From positions 319 to 64,318 of the forward strand of contig JAUSCZ010000012.1 in the NCBI GenBank assembly GCA_030674475.1: a DNA stretch of 64,000 nucleotides. The letters are read 5' to 3'. The notes below the pieces were generated by a model. That model was not told where the DNA came from and searched no databases. It saw only the letters and a program-made list of their open reading frames with translations. Origin of the DNA: Candidatus Omnitrophota bacterium. Its GTDB lineage: Bacteria; Omnitrophota; Gorgyraeia; Gygaellales; UBA12090. Positions within the stretch are counted from its first letter, which is position 1. Each line of letters opens with the position of its first letter. Shown here one piece after another: positions 25,777-60,819 of the stretch. A program made the position numbers and the translations under genes.

Positions 25777-25818
25777 GAAATCCTCCCCTTACCAAGGGGA
25801 GGCGGGGTGGGGTTAAAA
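25777..25818. repeat. REP-like palindromic repeat
   Basis: 'AATCCTCCCCTTACCAAGGGGAGGCGGGGTGGGGTTAAA', immediately upstream of pabB. Confidence 0.6.
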
Positions 25819-27302
25819 TGCCATACTTGACCTGGAAATCGTTTGACTGGAAGCAGGACGCCTGGGGAATTTTTGAGGCAATTAAGGATAAGCAAAATGT
25901 CTTTTTTTTGGACAGTTCTCTGCGCCGTCCGGACTTAGGCCGGTATTCCTTTTTAGGCTTTGAGCCGTTTTGTATCTTTAAAGCCAAAGGCCAAAAAGAT
26001 TCGCTTAATCAGTTAAGAACTCTGCTTGGGCGCTACAGGTTAACAAATACGAAATTTCCTTTTTTAGGCGGGGCAGTCGGCTATCTGGCGTATGATTTCG
26101 GCTTAAGCTTAGAGAACATTGAGGAAAAAACCAAGGATGATATTGGCCTTCCGGATGTATTCTTTGGCTTTTACGATGTGGTAATCGCCATTGACCATTG
26201 GCAGAAAAAGCTGACTATTTTTTCCACCGGTTTTCCCGAAAAAAGCTCTTTCTTAGCCAAAAAACGCTCAGAGCAGAGATTAAAACAGTTTATTCAGGAG
26301 TTGTCTAAGCAGGGCCGTCATTCAGGTTGTGTCACGATGTCATTGCGAGCCCCGTTAGAAAACTTTAGCAATGTTAAAAGAGTTTTTCTAACGGGGCGAG
26401 GAGCCGCAGGCGACGCGGCAATCTCAAAAACGAGTTTGCTTCACCCCTTCGGGGTTCGCAATGACAAATTAGCAATTAAGCCTGTATCTAATTTCACCAA
26501 AGAGAAATATTTAAAAGCAGTTACCAAAGCCAAGGATTACATTAAAAAAGGCGACATCTATCAGGTTAATCTCTCCCAAAGATTCAGCGCGCAAACCTCT
26601 TTAAGCAGTTTTGACTTATATCAGAAACTACGCCAGGTTTCACCCAGCGACTTCTCGGCTTACCTTGCCTGCGGAGATTTTCAGATTATCAGCTCTTCTC
26701 CGGAGAGATTCCTTAGTTTTGACGGGAAAAAGGTTTCCACCCGGCCGATGAAGGGGACCCGGCCGCGAGGAACAAATCCCCGGGCGGACGCGCGCCATAA
26801 GCGGGATTTACTGCAAAGCCCCAAAGATAAGGCCGAATTGCTGATGATTGTGGATTTACTGCGTAATGACCTGGGCCGGGTCTGTAAATATGGCTCAATC
26901 AAAGTCAGCTCAATGCGCGCCCTGGAGGCCTATTCCACGGTTTATCAGACCACCGCCTCTATTGAAGGAGTTTTGCATCCGGAAAAAGACCGCCTTGACC
27001 TGCTCAAAGCCTGCTTTCCCGGCGGCTCAATAACCGGATGCCCCAAAATCCGCTCAATGGAGATAATTGAAGAACTTGAGCCGACTAAGCGGGCAATTTA
27101 TACCGGTTCGCTGGGCTATTTTGGATTCAATAATACCATGGACCTGAATATCTTAATCCGCACAATTTTGAAAAAAAGTGATAAAATATACTTTCAGACC
27201 GGCGGCGGAATCGTATCCGATTCCCAAGCCGAAAACGAATACCAGGAAACCCTCACCAAAGCCCAGGGTATCTTTAAGACGTTAAAGCGCGGTTGCCTGT
27301 AG
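25818..27302 (+). CDS. pabB: Aminodeoxychorismate synthase component I (chorismate-binding enzyme family)
   Basis: 'SSSPERFL', 'PKIRSMEIIEELE', 'RAIYTGSLGY', 'GGGIVSDSQAENEYQET' motifs. A PabC-like gene lies 11 kb downstream. Confidence 0.75.
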   Translation: MPYLTWKSFDWKQDAWGIFEAIKDKQNVFFLDSSLRRPDLGRYSFLGFEPFCIFKAKGQKDSLNQLRTLLGRYRLTNTKFPFLGGAVGYLAYDFGLSLENIEEKTKDDIGLPDVFFGFYDVVIAIDHWQKKLTIFSTGFPEKSSFLAKKRSEQRLKQFIQELSKQGRHSGCVTMSLRAPLENFSNVKRVFLTGRGAAGDAAISKTSLLHPFGVRNDKLAIKPVSNFTKEKYLKAVTKAKDYIKKGDIYQVNLSQRFSAQTSLSSFDLYQKLRQVSPSDFSAYLACGDFQIISSSPERFLSFDGKKVSTRPMKGTRPRGTNPRADARHKRDLLQSPKDKAELLMIVDLLRNDLGRVCKYGSIKVSSMRALEAYSTVYQTTASIEGVLHPEKDRLDLLKACFPGGSITGCPKIRSMEIIEELEPTKRAIYTGSLGYFGFNNTMDLNILIRTILKKSDKIYFQTGGGIVSDSQAENEYQETLTKAQGIFKTLKRGCL

Positions 27303-27571: not shown

Positions 27572-28171
27572 ATGACACAAAGTATTTATAATAAAGTAGT
27601 TAGCATGATATACGGAATGAAGAGGGGTTGGGTATTTACTACAACTAATTTTCTTGATCTTGGAAGTCGCACGGCCGTGGCTAAAACCCTAGAGCGTTTA
27701 GCGGACTCCGGTACTATTCGCCGACTCGCGCGTGGCCTGTATGATTACCCGGAGAAACATCCTGTGTTGGGAGAGTTACCCGCGAATTATGAGCGCATCG
27801 CTCAAGCATTGGCAGGAAGGGATAGTTTGAAAATTCAACCTTCCGGGGCATATGCCGCTAATCTGCTTGGTTTAACCGAACAGGTGCCGGCAAGAATTGT
27901 TTTTTTGACAGATGGCTCCAATAGAAAAGTGCAGGTCAAAAATCAGCAGATCATTTTGAAAAGAACAACCCCCAAGAATATGGCAACCGCCGGGAATGTG
28001 AGCGGTTTGGTCATTCAGGCTTTGCGGTATTTAGGTAAAGATCACGTAGATGCTAAAACAGTAGGAATACTTAATAAGAGATTAACGGGAGATGATAAGC
28101 GCCAGCTTATGCGCGATCTTCGCTATGCCCCCGCGTGGATAGGATCAATATTTAGACAACTACAGAGATAA
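27572..28171 (+). CDS. abiEi: AbiEi-family type IV toxin-antitoxin antitoxin / transcriptional regulator
   Basis: 'TAVAKTLERLADSGTIRRLARGLYDY' matches the AbiEi N-terminal wHTH. Paired with a downstream AbiEii gene. Confidence 0.7.
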   Translation: MTQSIYNKVVSMIYGMKRGWVFTTTNFLDLGSRTAVAKTLERLADSGTIRRLARGLYDYPEKHPVLGELPANYERIAQALAGRDSLKIQPSGAYAANLLGLTEQVPARIVFLTDGSNRKVQVKNQQIILKRTTPKNMATAGNVSGLVIQALRYLGKDHVDAKTVGILNKRLTGDDKRQLMRDLRYAPAWIGSIFRQLQR

Positions 28172-28178
28172 GAAGATT

Positions 28179-29204
28179 ATGGATAAATTCGTATTGTTGA
28201 CGCGTAAAGATAAACGCGCGTACTTTGAAGTGGCCGCGGCTAACTTGAACATAATGCCGCAACTGATTGAAAAGGATTTTTGGGTATGCTGGATACTAAA
28301 AATTATTTTTTCATTACCGAAGGTCGGCGCGCATTTAACCTTTAAAGGGGGAACATCCCTCTCAAAATGTTATAACGTTATTAAACGCTTTTCGGAAGAT
28401 ATCGATATTTCAATAGAAAGGCCTTTTTTATCAAAGACCCATGCTATCGAACCGGATAAAGAAAAAAGCAATAAGGAAAATCAGAAAAGACTCAAGGAAT
28501 TGCAATTGGTTTGTAAAACAAAAATTGATGAAATGATCATCCCCAGCTTAAAACAATCAATCGCGGCAGTTCTTTCCGATACCGGGGAATGGAAAATTGA
28601 ACCGGATTCCGGGGATGAGGACGGACAAACTGTTTTATTTATCTTTCCTCATGCTATGACGAGTACCGCGGAAAGTTACGTAAGATCCTCAGTCAAAATT
28701 GAATTTGGCGCTCGATCTGATCATTGGCCGGTTGAAACCGCGACAATTGTCCCCTATGTCGCGAATGTTTCCGGGGAGCGGGTTATTGAAGGGGCTTCCG
28801 CGCGCGTTTTAGCCGCGGAACGGACTTTTTGGGAGAAAGCGACGATCCTGCATATGATATATCATTATCCGTCTGAAAAAAACATACCGCCGCGAATGTC
28901 GCGGCATTATTACGATATATACGCGATGGCAGATTCGCCCATATATAAAAAAGCATTAAAGAGTATTTCGTTGTTAAAACATGTATCTGACCATAAATCT
29001 CTATTTTTTAAAGCGAATTGGGCGCATTATGATACAGCCAAGTCGGGTACCTTGCGGTTAGTGCCTCGTGATAATCTGGTGAGCCAACTGAAAAATGATT
29101 ACCGTCAAATGCAGCAAATGTTTTTTGAAGAGCCTCCGTCATTTGAGCAAATTATAGAAAAACTCCGGGCCATAGAAGAACAGATTAATAGGATCTCCTT
29201 ATGA
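28179..29204 (+). CDS. abiEii: AbiEii/AbiGii-family nucleotidyltransferase toxin (DUF1814)
   Basis: 'FKGGTSLSKCY...SEDIDIS' NTase motif typical of AbiEii. Confidence 0.75.
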   Translation: MDKFVLLTRKDKRAYFEVAAANLNIMPQLIEKDFWVCWILKIIFSLPKVGAHLTFKGGTSLSKCYNVIKRFSEDIDISIERPFLSKTHAIEPDKEKSNKENQKRLKELQLVCKTKIDEMIIPSLKQSIAAVLSDTGEWKIEPDSGDEDGQTVLFIFPHAMTSTAESYVRSSVKIEFGARSDHWPVETATIVPYVANVSGERVIEGASARVLAAERTFWEKATILHMIYHYPSEKNIPPRMSRHYYDIYAMADSPIYKKALKSISLLKHVSDHKSLFFKANWAHYDTAKSGTLRLVPRDNLVSQLKNDYRQMQQMFFEEPPSFEQIIEKLRAIEEQINRISL

Positions 29205-29349
29205 ATTACTACTGCACCTCAGATTATCACTTTTCGCGTTGCGTAAAAAAGAAGGCCCTGGCCTTATCCAATCCCGAACTGCATCGCCTTGCGCGAAAAC
29301 TATTAGAAGTTTAAAGGGAAAAAAGGAAAAATGGGGTCAGGGAATAATA

Positions 29350-29453
29350 GGGTCAGCGACCATTTTATTGAAAGATGGAGGAAATTTTGGGAAGCGTTAA
29401 CTATAATGAAAAAGGACAGACCACGAAAATGACAATAAATGGTCGCTGTCCTT
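29350..29453. repeat. Small TIR element (GGGTCAGCGACCAT ... ATGGTCGCTGTCC), GGGGTCAG-family relative
   Basis: A 12-nt inverted repeat with one mismatch flanks ~76 nt. It is preceded by a partial GGGGTCAG at 29333. Confidence 0.4.
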
Positions 29454-29530
29454 ATTTTCCGATTGTTCGCCTGGGCAAGGATTTTTGCAAAAAGACTAAA
29501 CCAAGGTGTGAAATATGCCCGATAAAGTAA
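29452..29530 (+). pseudogene. Fragment homologous to the 3' end of the endonuclease III-like gene at 45146..45787
   Basis: It translates to '..PIVRLGKDFCKKTKPRCEICPIK*', versus 'ALIVRLGKDFCKKTNPKCEICPIK*' at 45723..45787. The helicase start codon (29515) lies inside it. Confidence 0.6.
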
Positions 29531-34113: not shown

Positions 34114-34155
34114 AAAACCATTAGAGTAAGCCAAAGTTGAAGAATACAGAAAAAT

Positions 34156-34229
34156 GGGGTCAGAGTGAATTTATGATGGCAGAATCGTGAGGGGAATAGA
34201 GAGAATGCTTAAAAAATAGACCTGACCCC
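34156..34229. mobile_element. 74-nt MITE, GGGGTCAG...CTGACCCC family, copy A
   Basis: Terminal inverted repeats GGGGTCAG/CTGACCCC. Identical, including short flanks, to copy C at 35536. Confidence 0.7.
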
Positions 34230-34249
34230 TATATTTGGCTGAAAATAAA

Positions 34250-34322
34250 GGGGTCAGAGCGGATTTAGGATGGTAGAATCGTGAGGGGATGGAGGGAATA
34301 CTTTAAAAGTAGACCTGACCCC
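34250..34322. mobile_element. 73-nt MITE, same family, copy B (diverged)
   Basis: GGGGTCAGAGCGGATTTAGGATGGTAGAATCGTGAGGGG...AGACCTGACCCC. Confidence 0.65.
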
Positions 34323-34431
34323 GACTCCTATGTGCGTTGAAGTAGCGAAAGCAAAATTTGCAATGAAACAGGCATGTAAGAGGTTAGTTTTCGCTATGAG
34401 CTTTATTACGGCTTAAATCTATGATTCTAAT

Positions 34432-35379
34432 ATGAAGAAATATGCAGATTCAATAACACAATATTTACAAAATGAATTAAAGAATTCTGCAGTTAGTTAT
34501 TTAAAGGCAGGGTTGGAGATTTTTCATAAGACAAATAAAGCAGGAAGTTGGAGCAGTCAACCTGCTTTGGGAAATTTGGGGATAGCGGTAGAATTGATGT
34601 TAAAGGCGTTTATCGTAAAAAATAATCCCCTTCTCCTTTTTAAAGGGTTGCCTATAGAACTTCAGGTGTTATTTACTTGCCCTGATTCTTTGCCCCGAGA
34701 TTTTAATTGGAGACTATTTGATATCGATTTACGATCATTTAAGTATGAAACCAAAGAATTAAATGAGTGTATCTCAGCATTTTATGTATTATTACCAGAG
34801 CATAAACAAGAGCTTAATCCGTACATGCAATTATTATCACGGTATAGAAATGCTAGTGTTCATTCTGCTTTGCCTTCATTTCAGGCCTATGAGATTCAAA
34901 GAGTGGCGTTTCTATCGTTGCGTTTGTTATCAATTCTCCAGTCTCGAAAAATAATCTCTGAGTATGCGCACATCACTACAAAAGATGACAAGTATTTCCT
35001 TTCTGCATTTAAACTTGACCGAATCGACCGTGTTAAGAAGAAAATCGATGATGCTAAGGAAAAGTCAAAACGTATTCCAGCGGGGCAAGCTTCATTGAGC
35101 GTAGATGGTTGGGAGAACTATGTGACACAATGTCCAATATGCGAATCTGACGGGATGCTTTCTGGCTATACAGATATACATGTTGAAGGGTCAGCAGAAG
35201 ATGTTGATCTATCGCTAGACTTTCTCGCAGATGGATTCATATGTGAAGAGTGTGGATTAGAGTTAAATGATACTGAAGAACTCAGGTTGGCAGGGATAGA
35301 GTTGTATTATGATCGTTCTAGTGAATTAGATGCATGGCATAGGGATCAGTATGAGCCTGATCCAAGTGAATATCTATAA
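34432..35379 (+). CDS. Hypothetical 315-aa protein with an Rx4H (HEPN-like) motif and a C-terminal zinc ribbon
   Basis: 'LLSRYRNASVHSALP' (R-x4-H) at aa ~139-144; 'CPICESDGM...CEECGLEL' Cys pairs. No other recognisable motif. Confidence 0.4.
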   Translation: MKKYADSITQYLQNELKNSAVSYLKAGLEIFHKTNKAGSWSSQPALGNLGIAVELMLKAFIVKNNPLLLFKGLPIELQVLFTCPDSLPRDFNWRLFDIDLRSFKYETKELNECISAFYVLLPEHKQELNPYMQLLSRYRNASVHSALPSFQAYEIQRVAFLSLRLLSILQSRKIISEYAHITTKDDKYFLSAFKLDRIDRVKKKIDDAKEKSKRIPAGQASLSVDGWENYVTQCPICESDGMLSGYTDIHVEGSAEDVDLSLDFLADGFICEECGLELNDTEELRLAGIELYYDRSSELDAWHRDQYEPDPSEYL

Positions 35380-35535
35380 CTATTTGCTTTTATGAACGAA
35401 GCCTATCCCCTTAAAATTCCGTCAGTTTTTTTGAAAAAAGAGGGAGAAGGATAGCGGGGTAAATAGGGTTAGCTTAGGTTGTCCCTATTTTTTCAAAGAG
35501 GAGCAATTTGGAAAAATTATTGCAGAGGGAATAAT

Positions 35536-35609
35536 GGGGTCAGAGTGAATTTATGATGGCAGAATCGTGAGGGGAATAGAGAGAATGCTTAAAAAATAGA
35601 CCTGACCCC
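35536..35609. mobile_element. 74-nt MITE, same family, copy C
   Basis: Identical to copy A. Confidence 0.7.
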
Positions 35610-35639
35610 TATATTTCCTATATTTACGCGGAACATCTG

Positions 35640-36412
35640 GAAGTATGGTATGGGCAGAAAAAAACAGAGACTATCAGCCGGCTAAGAGGAGAATACAAAC
35701 ACAGGATAAATTACCGGCATATCATAGATTGGCTGGTAAGGAAGCCCGGCGCATTCCAACAATACCGGTATCGGCAGGATATGTTCCCCACGACAATATT
35801 CCGCCTGGCATATGACAATTTAATAGCGCATAGCCCTGCCAAAGGGCATAAGGATTATCTGGAGATATTATATTTAGCTTCAAAAGAGAGCGAAACAGGG
35901 GTTGGACAGGCATTGGAGAGCCTTTTAGAGAATCAGCAGGCTATAAATATGGACGCGGTCAGGAAAATCTTAGAAGTGGATACAGAAAAAACATCAGTTG
36001 CGGATATACGAATCGACAGTATTAACTTATATGATTACGATGAATTCCTGACGGTTAAGGAGGCAGCCTGATGATAAAGACAGCAATCAATATTAAGTCG
36101 CGCCTCAAGGAAATGTTAAAAGAACTGCATTTATCAGCAATCAGGGAATCGTATGAAGAGCTGGCAAAAGACGCGCAAGCGAATTCGTTATCTCCTGAAG
36201 AATTTTTATTAGGATTGACTGAGCGGGAATGTGAATACCGGCGGTTAAGACGAACAGATCGGTTATTACGGGAATCGCGGCTGCCGCTGGAGAAAACGAT
36301 GGAGTTATTTAATTTAAAACGGCTGCCGGCGATAGTAATCCAGAAGGTAAAAAGCCTGCTTGATGGTGAATTCCTTAACCCCTCCGAAAATGGGGTCAGC
36401 CCCGGACAGTAG
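35640..36412 (+). mobile_element. IS21-family remnant: istA C-terminal fragment and 3'-truncated istB (N-terminal 113 aa only)
   Basis: 'MLKELHLSAIRESYEELAKDAQANSLSPEEFLLGLTERECEYRRLRRTDRLLRESRLPLEKTMELFNLKRLP' matches the IstB N-terminal domain. It stops before the Walker A box, exactly where repeat E1 begins. The upstream ORF 'DMFPTTIFRLAYDNLIAHSPAKGHKDYLEIL...' abuts it as istA does. Confidence 0.65.
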
Positions 36413-36470
36413 ACATTAATTGATAAAAGATTAATTGAATGACTATAATCGCGTTTTGTCCACACAACGC
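36392..36470 (+). repeat. Repeat E1: GGGGTCAG-initiated ~78-nt element end carrying an inward sigma70 promoter (TTGATA-18-TATAAT)
   Basis: ~90% identical to E2 (37480..37548). It truncates istB and sits 170 nt upstream of the DUF3800 gene. Confidence 0.6.
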
Positions 36471-36642: not shown

Positions 36643-37295
36643 GGTGTTTTATTTATATCTAGACGAAAGCGGTGATTTGGGGGTTTGATTTTGTTACTAA
36701 GAAACCCTCAAAATTCTTCACTATCATGGTGCTCGTGCTGAAAGGACAGGATAAGAACCGCGCGCTTATTAATGCGGTAAAGCATACATTAAGGCGCAAG
36801 TTAGGGAAAAGGAAGCTGTTCAAGAGCATTGGCTGCGAATTAAAGGCAAGCAGGGTGTCTATTGAAATTAAAAAGTATTTCTACGACCAGGTCAAGGGGT
36901 TGGATTTCAAATTGTATACGTTGACTCTCAACAAGAAAAGGGTGTATCAAAGCTTAATGCAAGAAAAGGAGAGAATTTATAATTACCTCGCCCGCTTAGT
37001 GTTGGATAAGATAAGTTTTGATAATGCTGAAGTCAGGGTTACGCTGATAGTGGACAAAAGCAAGGGTAAGCCTGAAATTTCCGAATTCAATTCATATATC
37101 TTTAGGCAGATTCAGGCAAAAATTGATCCCAAGATACCATTAGATATTGAGCATGCGTTATCGCATGAGAACTTGGGTTTGCAAGCAGTGGATATGTTTA
37201 CTTGGGGGATATTCAGAAAATATGAGAGGAAAGACTTTGGGTGGTTCAGGGTATTTGAGAGCAAGATGGCTTACGATGATGTTTATCTACCATAA
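36643..37295 (+). pseudogene. DUF3800-family gene with a +/-1 frameshift in a G5 tract
   Basis: GTG-initiated 'VFYLYLDESGDLGV*' (the N-terminal DUF3800 DESGD motif) stops at 36686. The rest continues in another frame as 'GFDFVTKKPSKFFTIMVLVLKG...GLQAVDMFTWGIFR'. A single-base change in GGGGG would fuse them. Confidence 0.6.
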
Positions 37296-37626
37296 AATAA
37301 AAATGAGCGCGCCTTACAGGTTCGTTAAGTTTAGGCTTTTGCCCACCATACGGAGGGGAACACCTAAACAACCCGTAACGGTCTTACCGCTCACTTATAA
37401 GTATACCCTATGAGAAGGTTTTGTCAAGATGAAAATTTGGATAAATAGTCGTTTCTGTGCAAAACGACGGGAAAACGACGGGGTCAGACCCGGACAGTAG
37501 ACATTAATTGGTAAAAGATTAATCGAATGACTATAATCGCGTTATGTCCAACTATGGGATAGTAGAAACATATTGACAATGTAACTACATTGTAGTATTA
37601 TTGTAATAGAATAAGAAAATGAACCA

Positions 37627-38239: not shown

Positions 38240-38337
38240 CTAAATAAAAAGCTGGAGAGAATGGGTTAAGCTCAAGCAATAGAAATTAACTTCTAAAGTT
38301 GAGGTCTGACCCCAGAAAGTGCAGCGGTACCATTTAG

Positions 38338-39150
38338 ATGAAAATTTGGCTTAATGGGAAATTTGTAAAAGAGGAAGAAGCGAAGGTTGACATTACCTCA
38401 AGCGGTTTTTTATACGGCCAGGGGGTTTTTGAGACGATGCGGGCTTATAATGAGCGGGTTTTTCGTTTGGACAGCCATCTGGAGCGCCTGTTTAAGGCCC
38501 TGCCTATTCTTAACCTGGAATTATCCGTAGGACCTGAGGTTTTGAAAAAGGCGCTTAAGCAGGCTTTAAAAGAAAATAATCTTAAAGACGCCTATTTACG
38601 GATAACGGTCTGGCAGGGGAAAGATAAGGTTGAGGCCGCGGTTTTTGCCCGGGCGTATAATTTTTTAACCAAAGAGGATTACCATAAAGGCTTTAAGGCG
38701 ATAGTTTCCAGTTTTCGCCAGAATGAATTTTCCATCTTTTCCGGAATTAAGTCCGCTAACTATTTGCCTTTACTCCTGGCTTATCAGGAGGCAAAAAAGA
38801 AAAATGCCGATGAGGCCATACTTTTAAATACCCGGGATTTTCTGGTTGAGGCCTCCCGGGCTAATCTCTTTTTAGTTAAAGATAATTGTTTATTGACCCC
38901 ATCGTTAGACTGCGGATGCCTTCCCGGAATTACCCGGGATACGGTTTTAGGCCTGGCGGCTAAGGAAAAGATAAAGGTAATTGAGACTAAGCTTAAACCG
39001 GAGGATGTCCAGAGAGCCGAGGAGGCCTTTTTGACTAATTCCTTGATTGAGGTGATGCCGCTGGTCGCGGTTGAAGGAAGGCCGATTAAAAAAGGAGTTC
39101 CCGGTAAGATTGCCGAGCGTATTTTAAAACGTTACAAGGGATTGACTTAA
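38338..39150 (+). CDS. pabC: Class IV aminotransferase-fold protein, probable aminodeoxychorismate lyase
   Basis: Fold-type IV PLP enzyme ('GQGVFETMRAY', 'EAFLTNSLIEVMPLV'). It is the only nearby partner for pabB. Confidence 0.6.
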   Translation: MKIWLNGKFVKEEEAKVDITSSGFLYGQGVFETMRAYNERVFRLDSHLERLFKALPILNLELSVGPEVLKKALKQALKENNLKDAYLRITVWQGKDKVEAAVFARAYNFLTKEDYHKGFKAIVSSFRQNEFSIFSGIKSANYLPLLLAYQEAKKKNADEAILLNTRDFLVEASRANLFLVKDNCLLTPSLDCGCLPGITRDTVLGLAAKEKIKVIETKLKPEDVQRAEEAFLTNSLIEVMPLVAVEGRPIKKGVPGKIAERILKRYKGLT

Positions 39151-60720: not shown

Positions 60721-60819
60721 GGCGGGAAAAAAAGGCAAACCATCCGTAAGGATGGGGCGCAAAGCTTCCGGTCCTAGAACGAATGAAGTGAATCGTAGGA
60801 TAGCGGAGCCGCCAAGGGG
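60721..60819 (+). promoter_or_regulatory. c-di-GMP-I (GEMM) riboswitch aptamer
   Basis: 'GGCAAACCAUCCGUAAGGAUGGGGCGCAAAGCUUCCGGUCCUAGAAC...UAGGAUAGCGGAGCCGCC' is near-identical in its conserved blocks to the Vibrio Vc2 aptamer ('GGCAAACCAUUCGAAAGAGUGGGACGCAAAGCCUCCGGCCUAAACC...UAGGUAGCGGGG'). P1 closes by GGCGG/CCGCC. Confidence 0.75.

Follow-up and report, generated by a model that had tools for sequence, protein, structure and literature searches.

Single-gene defenses that combine a HEPN domain with a zinc ribbon are already known, the fusion having been noted in 2013 and HEC-08 and RAZR tested since. In the published definition, the HEPN domain is a bundle of four helices in which helices 2 and 3 are separated by an insert; helix 2 carries an E-x3-[KR] motif, and an Rx4-6H motif, whose arginine is followed by a polar residue (N, D or H), runs from the end of helix 3 into the loop (Anantharaman et al. 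2013, PMC3710099). DUF3644 is the HEPN clade EC042_2821, with a conserved Rx4-6H, fused to a zinc ribbon and found in restriction-modification (RM) operons or neighborhoods (PMC3710099). HEC-08, from E. coli ECOR52 (WP_001313577.1), consists of a DUF3644 HEPN domain and zinc ribbons and guards E. coli against phages, a protection that is lost when the motif histidine is mutated (Payne et al., bioRxiv 10.1101/2024.01.29.577857). In RAZR (PD-T7-4), a Cys4 zinc finger recognizes ring-shaped phage proteins, and this recognition turns on a HEPN ribonuclease (RNase) that cleaves single-stranded RNA non-specifically and leads to abortive infection (Zhang et al., Nature 2026, PMC13017515). Finally, the Ishtar anti-plasmid proteins, encoded by single genes often located in defense neighborhoods, join an N-terminal HEPN domain (DUF4145 or DUF3644) to a small C-terminal beta-rich domain without cysteines (bioRxiv 10.64898/2026.07.06.735840). 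Here we analyze a stretch of 64,000 nucleotides (nt) from a Candidatus Omnitrophota bacterium (contig JAUSCZ010000012.1, positions 319 to 64,318; hereafter the window), which carries a gene for a HEPN and zinc-ribbon protein of 315 amino acids (aa). We put forward that this protein is probably an infection-activated HEPN RNase, acting alone as a single-gene defense.

A first-pass annotation, made from the letters of the window, had singled out the reading frame of this protein, and the ATG-initiated frame stands, with conserved relatives (table 1). At 90% identity there are 56 clusters of them, and at 50% identity 240 representatives, nearly all 300-330 aa long. Relatives from named sources belong to Candidatus Omnitrophota, Anaerolineales and Bipolaricaulota, in a patchy distribution, and the window protein is 100% identical to Q7J72_01645, a protein of a Candidatus Omnitrophota metagenome-assembled genome. 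The conservation counts given below are taken over 158 full-length relatives, which were aligned and whose identity goes as low as ~26%.

Both HEPN motifs are conserved throughout the family: E54 is kept in 157/158 relatives and K58 in 155/158, while R139, N140 and H144 are found in 154, 149 and 155 of the 158, respectively. Thus, the R-x4-H that the first-pass annotation had picked out in the string RYRNASVHS (R139 at nt 34846-48, H144 at nt 34861-63) is not a chance occurrence. An AlphaFold2 model built with the family alignment has a predicted local distance difference test score (pLDDT) of 89.2 and a predicted template modeling score (pTM) of 0.87 at full length, and a pLDDT of 90.4 for residues 1-215. 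In this model the HEPN helices span residues 2-37, 43-64 (which holds E54-x3-K58), 122-144 and 152-171, with an insert of 57 residues (aa 65-121; short helices and strands) between helices 2 and 3; R139-N-A-S-V-H144 closes the third helix and is followed by a loop and the fourth. Taking models and alignment together, all four features of the published definition (PMC3710099) are present in the 315-aa protein. The best Foldseek matches in the PDB are likewise HEPN proteins (4nqf, with probability 0.99 and TM 0.58, TT1696, Csm6 and SO_3166), with E values of only ~0.1, and a profile search of PDB sequences returned spurious zinc-finger matches only. A predicted HEPN domain of canonical topology is therefore supported for residues ~1-175. 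The proposal that the Rx4H belongs to a HEPN domain, for which structure prediction had been suggested as a check, is borne out by the motifs, by a model topology that places R139 and H144 where helix 3 ends, and by the borderline DUF3644 matches and remote HEC-08 homology described below.

The other element that had been read from the sequence, a CxxC...CxxC ribbon, was also recovered, as C234-x2-C237 and C271-x2-C274, and its four cysteines are kept in 156-158 of the 158 relatives. In a Pfam scan of 38 relatives, the Lar_restr_allev zinc ribbon was matched by 27. The model shows a three-stranded sheet with knuckles at C234/C237 and C271/C274, followed by small terminal helices. The four invariant cysteines are one single C-terminal zinc ribbon. 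In two relatives, P0038 (L023 149-1708) and P0042, two ribosomal-protein-S1-like S1 domains are fused after the zinc ribbon, in P0038 within one uninterrupted 519-aa open reading frame (ORF). The presence of S1 RNA-binding domains in these two relatives fits RNA as the substrate. Between the window gene and that of a sister strain (L022 2661-3608) there are 9 nt differences, 5 of which change the protein (R172Q, Y188H, Y230H, E272G and L315Q, two of them in the zinc ribbon); these are too few to call selection.

We compared the family with the known systems at the level of profiles. DUF3644 (PF12358; gathering threshold 27.6 bits) is matched, weakly, by 18 of the 38 scanned relatives at E<=1, the sole one above gathering being P0036 with 29.6 bits, and the window protein gives no DUF3644 match at E<=1 and lies below the membership threshold. 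Judging from these matches, the family lies at the periphery of the DUF3644 model, as an outlier. With EC042_2821/DUF3644 it shares the HEPN clade link and the Rx4-6H, without the winged helix-turn-helix or restriction endonuclease fusions. For HEC-08, we took the sequence from Table S2 of Payne et al. and collected its family, of which 32 members were aligned. Across 174 columns, comparison of the two families with hhalign gave 94.1% probability and an E value of 1.3e-7, and the motifs fall in register, AVELMLK pairing with AVEILLK and RNASVH with RNRVVH; against the single HEC-08 sequence, the family profile still reached 84% probability. The two have in common a single gene encoding an N-terminal DUF3644-type HEPN domain, the motifs AVE(I/L)(L/M)LK and RN-x3-H, a long helix and a CxxC...CxxC ribbon. 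However, HEC-08 has 366 aa and several ribbons, whereas the window protein has 315 aa and one Cys4 ribbon, and HEC-08 is enterobacterial and embedded in Hma or RM loci, whereas the 315-aa family comes from uncultured environmental phyla. On profile evidence, the 315-aa family is thus best described as a remote sister of HEC-08 with a simpler C-terminus, and not as an HEC-08 ortholog.

RAZR provides the best mechanistic model for a ribbon that gates a HEPN domain, as it also combines a Cys4 zinc ribbon and a HEPN RNase in one polypeptide. The order is nevertheless reversed, with an N-terminal zinc finger and a C-terminal DUF4145 HEPN domain in RAZR, and the HEPN domain followed by the ribbon in the window protein. 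No sequence relationship to RAZR was detected, and DUF4145 is not among the 25 of 59 Pfam families listed for the relatives. The likeness to Ishtar lies in the general plan of a single gene for a HEPN domain plus a small C-terminal domain. Membership of the Ishtar group was considered and rejected, with an hhalign probability of 0.3% and the motifs of the 315-aa family absent from the homologs in Ishtar Table S3.

The genomic contexts, taken from the neighborhoods of 11 homologs and the sister-strain loci, provide additional clues. The family is enriched in defense islands, with about half of the ~12 contexts being clear defense neighborhoods. Among the neighbors are type I RM, GmrSD, TIR, PD-(D/E)xK and AbiE in L001; MvaI/BcnI, SRA-McrA and an OLD ATPase in L006; AIPR in L011; SIR2 with HerA, and PD-(D/E)xK, in L013; and a UvrD helicase in L014. 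Of the other loci, those of the related genomes L003 and L010 have the gene at a common variable spot, flanked by a carbohydrate-kinase operon and the MoxR/BatA operon. No gene recurs beside family members in the ~12 contexts, and neither an MNT-type antitoxin (as in HepT-MntA) nor any other recurrent neighbor was found in the window or at these loci. The absence of a recurring partner together with the defense neighborhoods fits a self-sufficient single-gene system, and speaks against a pairing with the helicase-nuclease gene that precedes the HEPN gene in the window. The linkage that the first-pass annotation had asked about is found in part: defense loci adjoin the family in about half of the contexts, and the helicase in none.

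In this context, we propose that two HEPN copies would pair, so that R139, N140 and H144 together with E54 and K58 would form an RNA-cleaving site, by analogy with other HEPN RNases; the RNase activity would be metal-independent and located at this composite dimer site. The enzyme would be kept inactive in uninfected cells, and the zinc ribbon on its long helix would have a part in recognition or regulation, with either a product of the phage or plasmid or the RNA substrate as its ligand. Upon infection, RNA would be cleaved and translation stopped, and the infection would abort or the invading element be lost. RNase activity, dimerization, the sensor role of the ribbon, the trigger and the abortive-infection outcome are inferences. 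Several observations weigh against this proposal. The window protein has zero matches to Pfam, PADLOC (2023), NCBIfam and PHROG models, so that annotation by these models leaves it unnamed. Identity to HEC-08 is just 18% over the aligned columns, and HEC-08 relatives have ~14 invariant cysteines in ~7 CxxC pairs, against four cysteines in two pairs here. The putative sensor role of the ribbon is borrowed from RAZR, where the domain order is reversed and the HEPN domain belongs to another clade (DUF4145). Searches of phage, plasmid and IMG/VR collections with tblastn found 0 homologs, and the remaining half or so of the contexts are solitary insertions among ordinary housekeeping genes. Finally, the window and L022 copies of the repeat-bounded block described below lie in one chromosomal slot, and its pattern of exchange could accordingly be due to ordinary homologous recombination.

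Table 1. Features of the locus in window coordinates, from the pabB-like to the pabC-like gene.
Feature	Position (nt)	Strand	Basis or remark
pabB-like gene	25818-27302		
SF1 (superfamily 1) helicase with C-terminal REase_MTES_1575 nuclease, 1532 aa	29515..34113	+	Same strand as HEPN gene; PADLOC PDC-S37, E 2.8e-63
Repeat copy A, 74 nt, palindromic, GGGGTCAG...CTGACCCC termini	34156..34229	+	
Repeat copy B, diverged, 73 nt	34250..34322	+	Left edge of block common with sister strain
HEPN and zinc-ribbon gene, 315 aa	34432..35379 (including stop)	+	ATG start; homolog alignment agrees with start codon
Predicted HEPN domain, ~aa 1-175	34432..34956	+	AlphaFold models, Foldseek, DUF3644 matches, hhalign against HEC-08
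E54-L-M-L-K58, E-x3-[KR] motif in HEPN helix 2	34591..34605	+	Conservation; motif defined in PMC3710099
R139-N-A-S-V-H144, Rx4H putative catalytic motif, end of helix 3	34846..34863	+	Conservation and model position
Predicted long connecting helix from HEPN to zinc ribbon, aa 184-212	34981..35067	+	Model; stretch also aligns with HEC-08 family
Cys4 zinc ribbon, aa 229-294	35116..35313	+	Model strands, cysteine conservation, Lar_restr_allev matches
Imperfect inverted repeat, 3' untranslated	35430..35497	+	Conserved in sister strain
Repeat copy C, 74 nt	35536..35609	+	Right edge of common block
Class IV aminotransferase, pabC-like gene	38338-39150		

The HEPN gene is flanked by palindromic repeats (table 1), of which A and B lie upstream in tandem and C downstream. 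The first-pass annotation had described A and C as identical including their flanks; they are near-identical, matching at 87/88 nt (34149-34236 vs 35529-35616, with 7 flanking bases on each side) including a TATATTT flank. Three matches to the repeat pattern were observed, against 0 in shuffled sequence. As in terminal inverted repeats, the termini GGGGTCAG...CTGACCCC are inverted, extendable to ~13 nt. Across the 64 kb there are 11 occurrences of the 8-mer GGGGTCAG or its complement, where ~0.8 would be expected per strand, and 10/11 sites, like all copies of the repeat in the window, fall inside the island between the pabB-like and pabC-like genes, within 9 kb. These ten GGGGTCAG/CTGACCCC 8-mers are all intergenic and in one orientation, at 29333, in the three 74-nt elements, at 36392, at 37480 and in a degenerate 52-nt palindrome (38262-38313) just before pabC. 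Sub-types of 74 nt and of 52 nt, along with modules that bear a promoter, differ from one another in internal sequence. In JGI metagenomes, six contigs were found to carry the 74-nt element, and when one genome for each species of GTDB was scanned, only chance-level matches came up, which indicates a narrow repeat family. No Rfam family matches the repeats, and covariation amounts to a single compensatory pair.

The repeats resemble repetitive extragenic palindromic sequences and bacterial interspersed mosaic elements (REP/BIME), miniature inverted-repeat transposable elements (MITEs) and integron attC sites in being short imperfect palindromes with conserved termini, intergenic, in one orientation and at cassette boundaries. 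They differ from these in their variable internal sequence and in lacking a GTTRRRY core and target-site duplications. The attC cores RYYYAAC/GTTRRRY are absent from the repeat sequence and no intI was found among the annotated neighbors. No flank is duplicated at A, B or C, or at the ends of the A..C block. A REP-associated tyrosine transposase (RAYT), another transposase or an integrase serving the repeats was not found among the ORFs annotated in or beside the island, the other ORFs of the window being unannotated; the only transposase traces nearby are an IS21 remnant in the window and an IS66 in L022. Two further roles were considered and rejected. The tandem upstream repeats could act as an RNA antitoxin, as in type III toxin-antitoxin (TA) systems, but the sister strain has one upstream copy, unrelated homologs are without repeats, and the repeats bound other genes too. 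The inverted repeat 3' of the gene is unlikely to be a terminator, as its folding is not above that of shuffled sequence and no terminator-like site was found there.

The comparison of strains shows how the repeats delimit the gene. In the sister strain (L021/L022), the order is pabB, a 388-aa AAA_14/DUF4143 ATPase, a repeat, the HEPN gene, a repeat, DUF6788 and an IS66 transposase. Upstream of repeat B the window and L022 are not alignable, and homology begins within B (78% identity), rises to 97% from B to the ATG and to 99.1% over the HEPN ORF, and continues at 95.5% from the ORF to repeat C and 94.6% within C, to end within 2-3 nt past repeat C in both L022 and L021. The pabB genes of window and L022 are 93% identical. 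A third strain (L017, L018) has other genes in the slot that follows pabB and the ATPase, namely those for a 210-aa protein of no known family, for another AAA_14/DUF4143 ATPase and for DUF3800, with 74-nt and 52-nt repeats of the same family between them; since the repeats here bound the ATPase and other cassettes, they are not specific to the HEPN gene. Given an ORF identity of 99.1% against 93% for pabB, and breakpoints in or at the repeats, the repeat-ORF-repeat block (~1.3 kb) is, as judged from the alignments, a discrete module whose exchange postdates the divergence of the chromosome around it. The repeats appear to be points of cassette swapping between related strains by recombination, and the A-B-ORF-C layout, with its near-identical A and C, is what would be expected from a single crossover of a circular B-ORF-C cassette into a resident repeat. 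The composite-transposon-like unit proposed by the first-pass annotation therefore holds as regards a discrete exchanged module, but not as regards transposition, given that transposase and target-site duplication are both missing, that both strains carry the block in one chromosomal slot, and that the repeats bound unrelated genes. Lineage-specific intergenic palindromic repeats acting as cassette junctions is a better label for the data than either classical MITE or composite transposon.

How else might the 315-aa protein be explained? In an alternative scenario, to which we accord a small probability, it might be a solitary toxin, or an RNase with housekeeping or regulatory duties, for example in RNA turnover or growth arrest under stress; an unrecognized protein or RNA antitoxin, or the zinc ribbon of the protein itself, would restrain it, and a dedicated anti-phage or anti-plasmid role would be lacking. 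HEPN toxins are indeed common in TA modules (PMC3710099), several homologs stand alone among housekeeping genes, a BrnT/BrnA TA pair adjoins the homolog in L003, and small unannotated ORFs are located upstream at some loci. This scenario is difficult to reconcile with the lack of an MNT or other conserved neighbor in the ~12 contexts, with the patchy spread over Omnitrophota, Anaerolineales and Bipolaricaulota, and with the recent cassette exchange and the defense islands at about half of the loci, and the flanking repeats, which also bound the ATPase and other cassettes, argue against an RNA antitoxin array. We regard as highly improbable the suggestion of the first-pass annotation that the protein is an accessory effector of the 1532-aa helicase-nuclease, the two forming a two-gene system. 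The gene does lie 3' of the helicase-nuclease, as had been noted, at a distance of 318 nt and on the same strand, and the relative in L014 follows a UvrD-type helicase. Yet two repeat copies separate the genes in the window, and the 99%-identical gene of the sister strain sits behind the AAA_14/DUF4143 ATPase, without such a helicase. The combination of SF1 helicase and MTES_1575 nuclease, whose co-occurrence with the HEPN gene had been proposed as a check, was found in none of the ~12 other contexts, sister strain included, which argues against the pairing. Furthermore, the helicase itself matches PDC-S37, and entries of the PADLOC S-series are single-gene candidates. It also resembles NCBIfam ProA and Hhe, below the family cut-offs. 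Neither an empty site nor further copies of the helicase locus were found, the sole other contig with the helicase ending inside repeat A.

A third possibility, slightly less probable than a toxin or housekeeping RNase, concerns the vehicle and is compatible with a single-gene defense: the locus might be a true mobile element, either a MITE-flanked composite or a cassette with a dedicated recombinase, with the protein as passenger cargo whose function would come second to the mobility. The shared flanks of the near-identical copies A and C, the exact bounding of the block by repeats and its closer similarity between strains than that of a core gene, the presence of the repeat family at gene junctions in other metagenome contigs, and a layout that would fit the single crossover of a circular cassette are all in line with mobility. 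On the other hand, there is neither a target-site duplication nor an adjoining transposase or integrase beyond the IS21 remnant and the IS66 in L022, both strains use one chromosomal slot, the repeats have no attC-like GTTRRRY core, and their chance-level occurrence in one-per-species GTDB genomes indicates a narrow family. Of similarly low probability is the more specific idea that GGGGTCAG...CTGACCCC might represent the recombination sites of a new integron-like system of an Omnitrophota lineage, in which single-gene defense cassettes would be inserted, excised and swapped at the fixed pabB/pabC slot without a recognizable integron integrase; the A-B-ORF-C layout would then be the footprint left by one-crossover integration of a circular HEPN cassette.

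The island as a whole spans ~11 kb (27.5-38.3 kb), inserted between the pabB-like and class IV aminotransferase (pabC-like) genes, and contains AbiEi/AbiEii, the helicase-nuclease, the HEPN gene, the IS21 remnant, DUF3800 with a DUF3800-V RNA, and a CopG-like gene. In related strains (L017/L018, L021/L022) the slot after pabB holds different cargo. The AbiEi/AbiEii pair at the left edge (27572-29204) is complete, with DUF6088 and a nucleotidyltransferase (PADLOC E 3.7e-70 and 1.3e-104). The gap between AbiEii and the helicase-nuclease (29333-29470) holds a GGGGTCAG stub followed by a GGACAG...CTGTCC inverted repeat, and a CATTTTATTGAAAGATG stretch from this gap recurs upstream of the L022 repeat. 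The IS21 remnant (~35650-36412), whose missing 5' part ends near repeat C, consists of a C-terminal fragment of IstA and an IstB truncated to 113 aa, which matches positions 2-94 of the 238-position profile. A module of ~70 nt starting with GGGGTCAG is repeated at 36392-36460 and 37480-37548 of the window and at 7599-7670 of L020, a related metagenome contig; it carries a near-consensus promoter (TTGATA, 18 nt, TATAAT) and in the window precedes the DUF3800 and CopG-like genes. The DUF3800-V RNA motif (37300-37398, minus strand; 76.5 bits in Rfam vs a gathering score of 37.4) lies directly downstream of, and antisense to, the DUF3800 gene (ORF 36672-37295, plus strand). Outside the island, a match to the c-di-GMP-I-GGC riboswitch was found at 60725-60817 on the plus strand, with 59.7 bits barely at the gathering score of 59.

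What the 315-aa family adds is a set of proteins unrecognized by the models run, with a minimal single-ribbon architecture and from uncultured phyla. Zinc-finger-gated single-protein HEPN RNases, namely HEC-08, RAZR and, more loosely, Ishtar, represent an immune design recognized only recently. With a single HEPN domain, helix and ribbon, the family represents a minimal form of this design and a compact candidate for studying how a ribbon may control a HEPN site, and the repeat-bounded cassette is a concrete small-scale example of the rebuilding of a defense island. The biology proposed here is an expected extension of known systems and no surprise, and with it the HEPN and zinc-finger design would extend to Omnitrophota, Chloroflexota and Bipolaricaulota.

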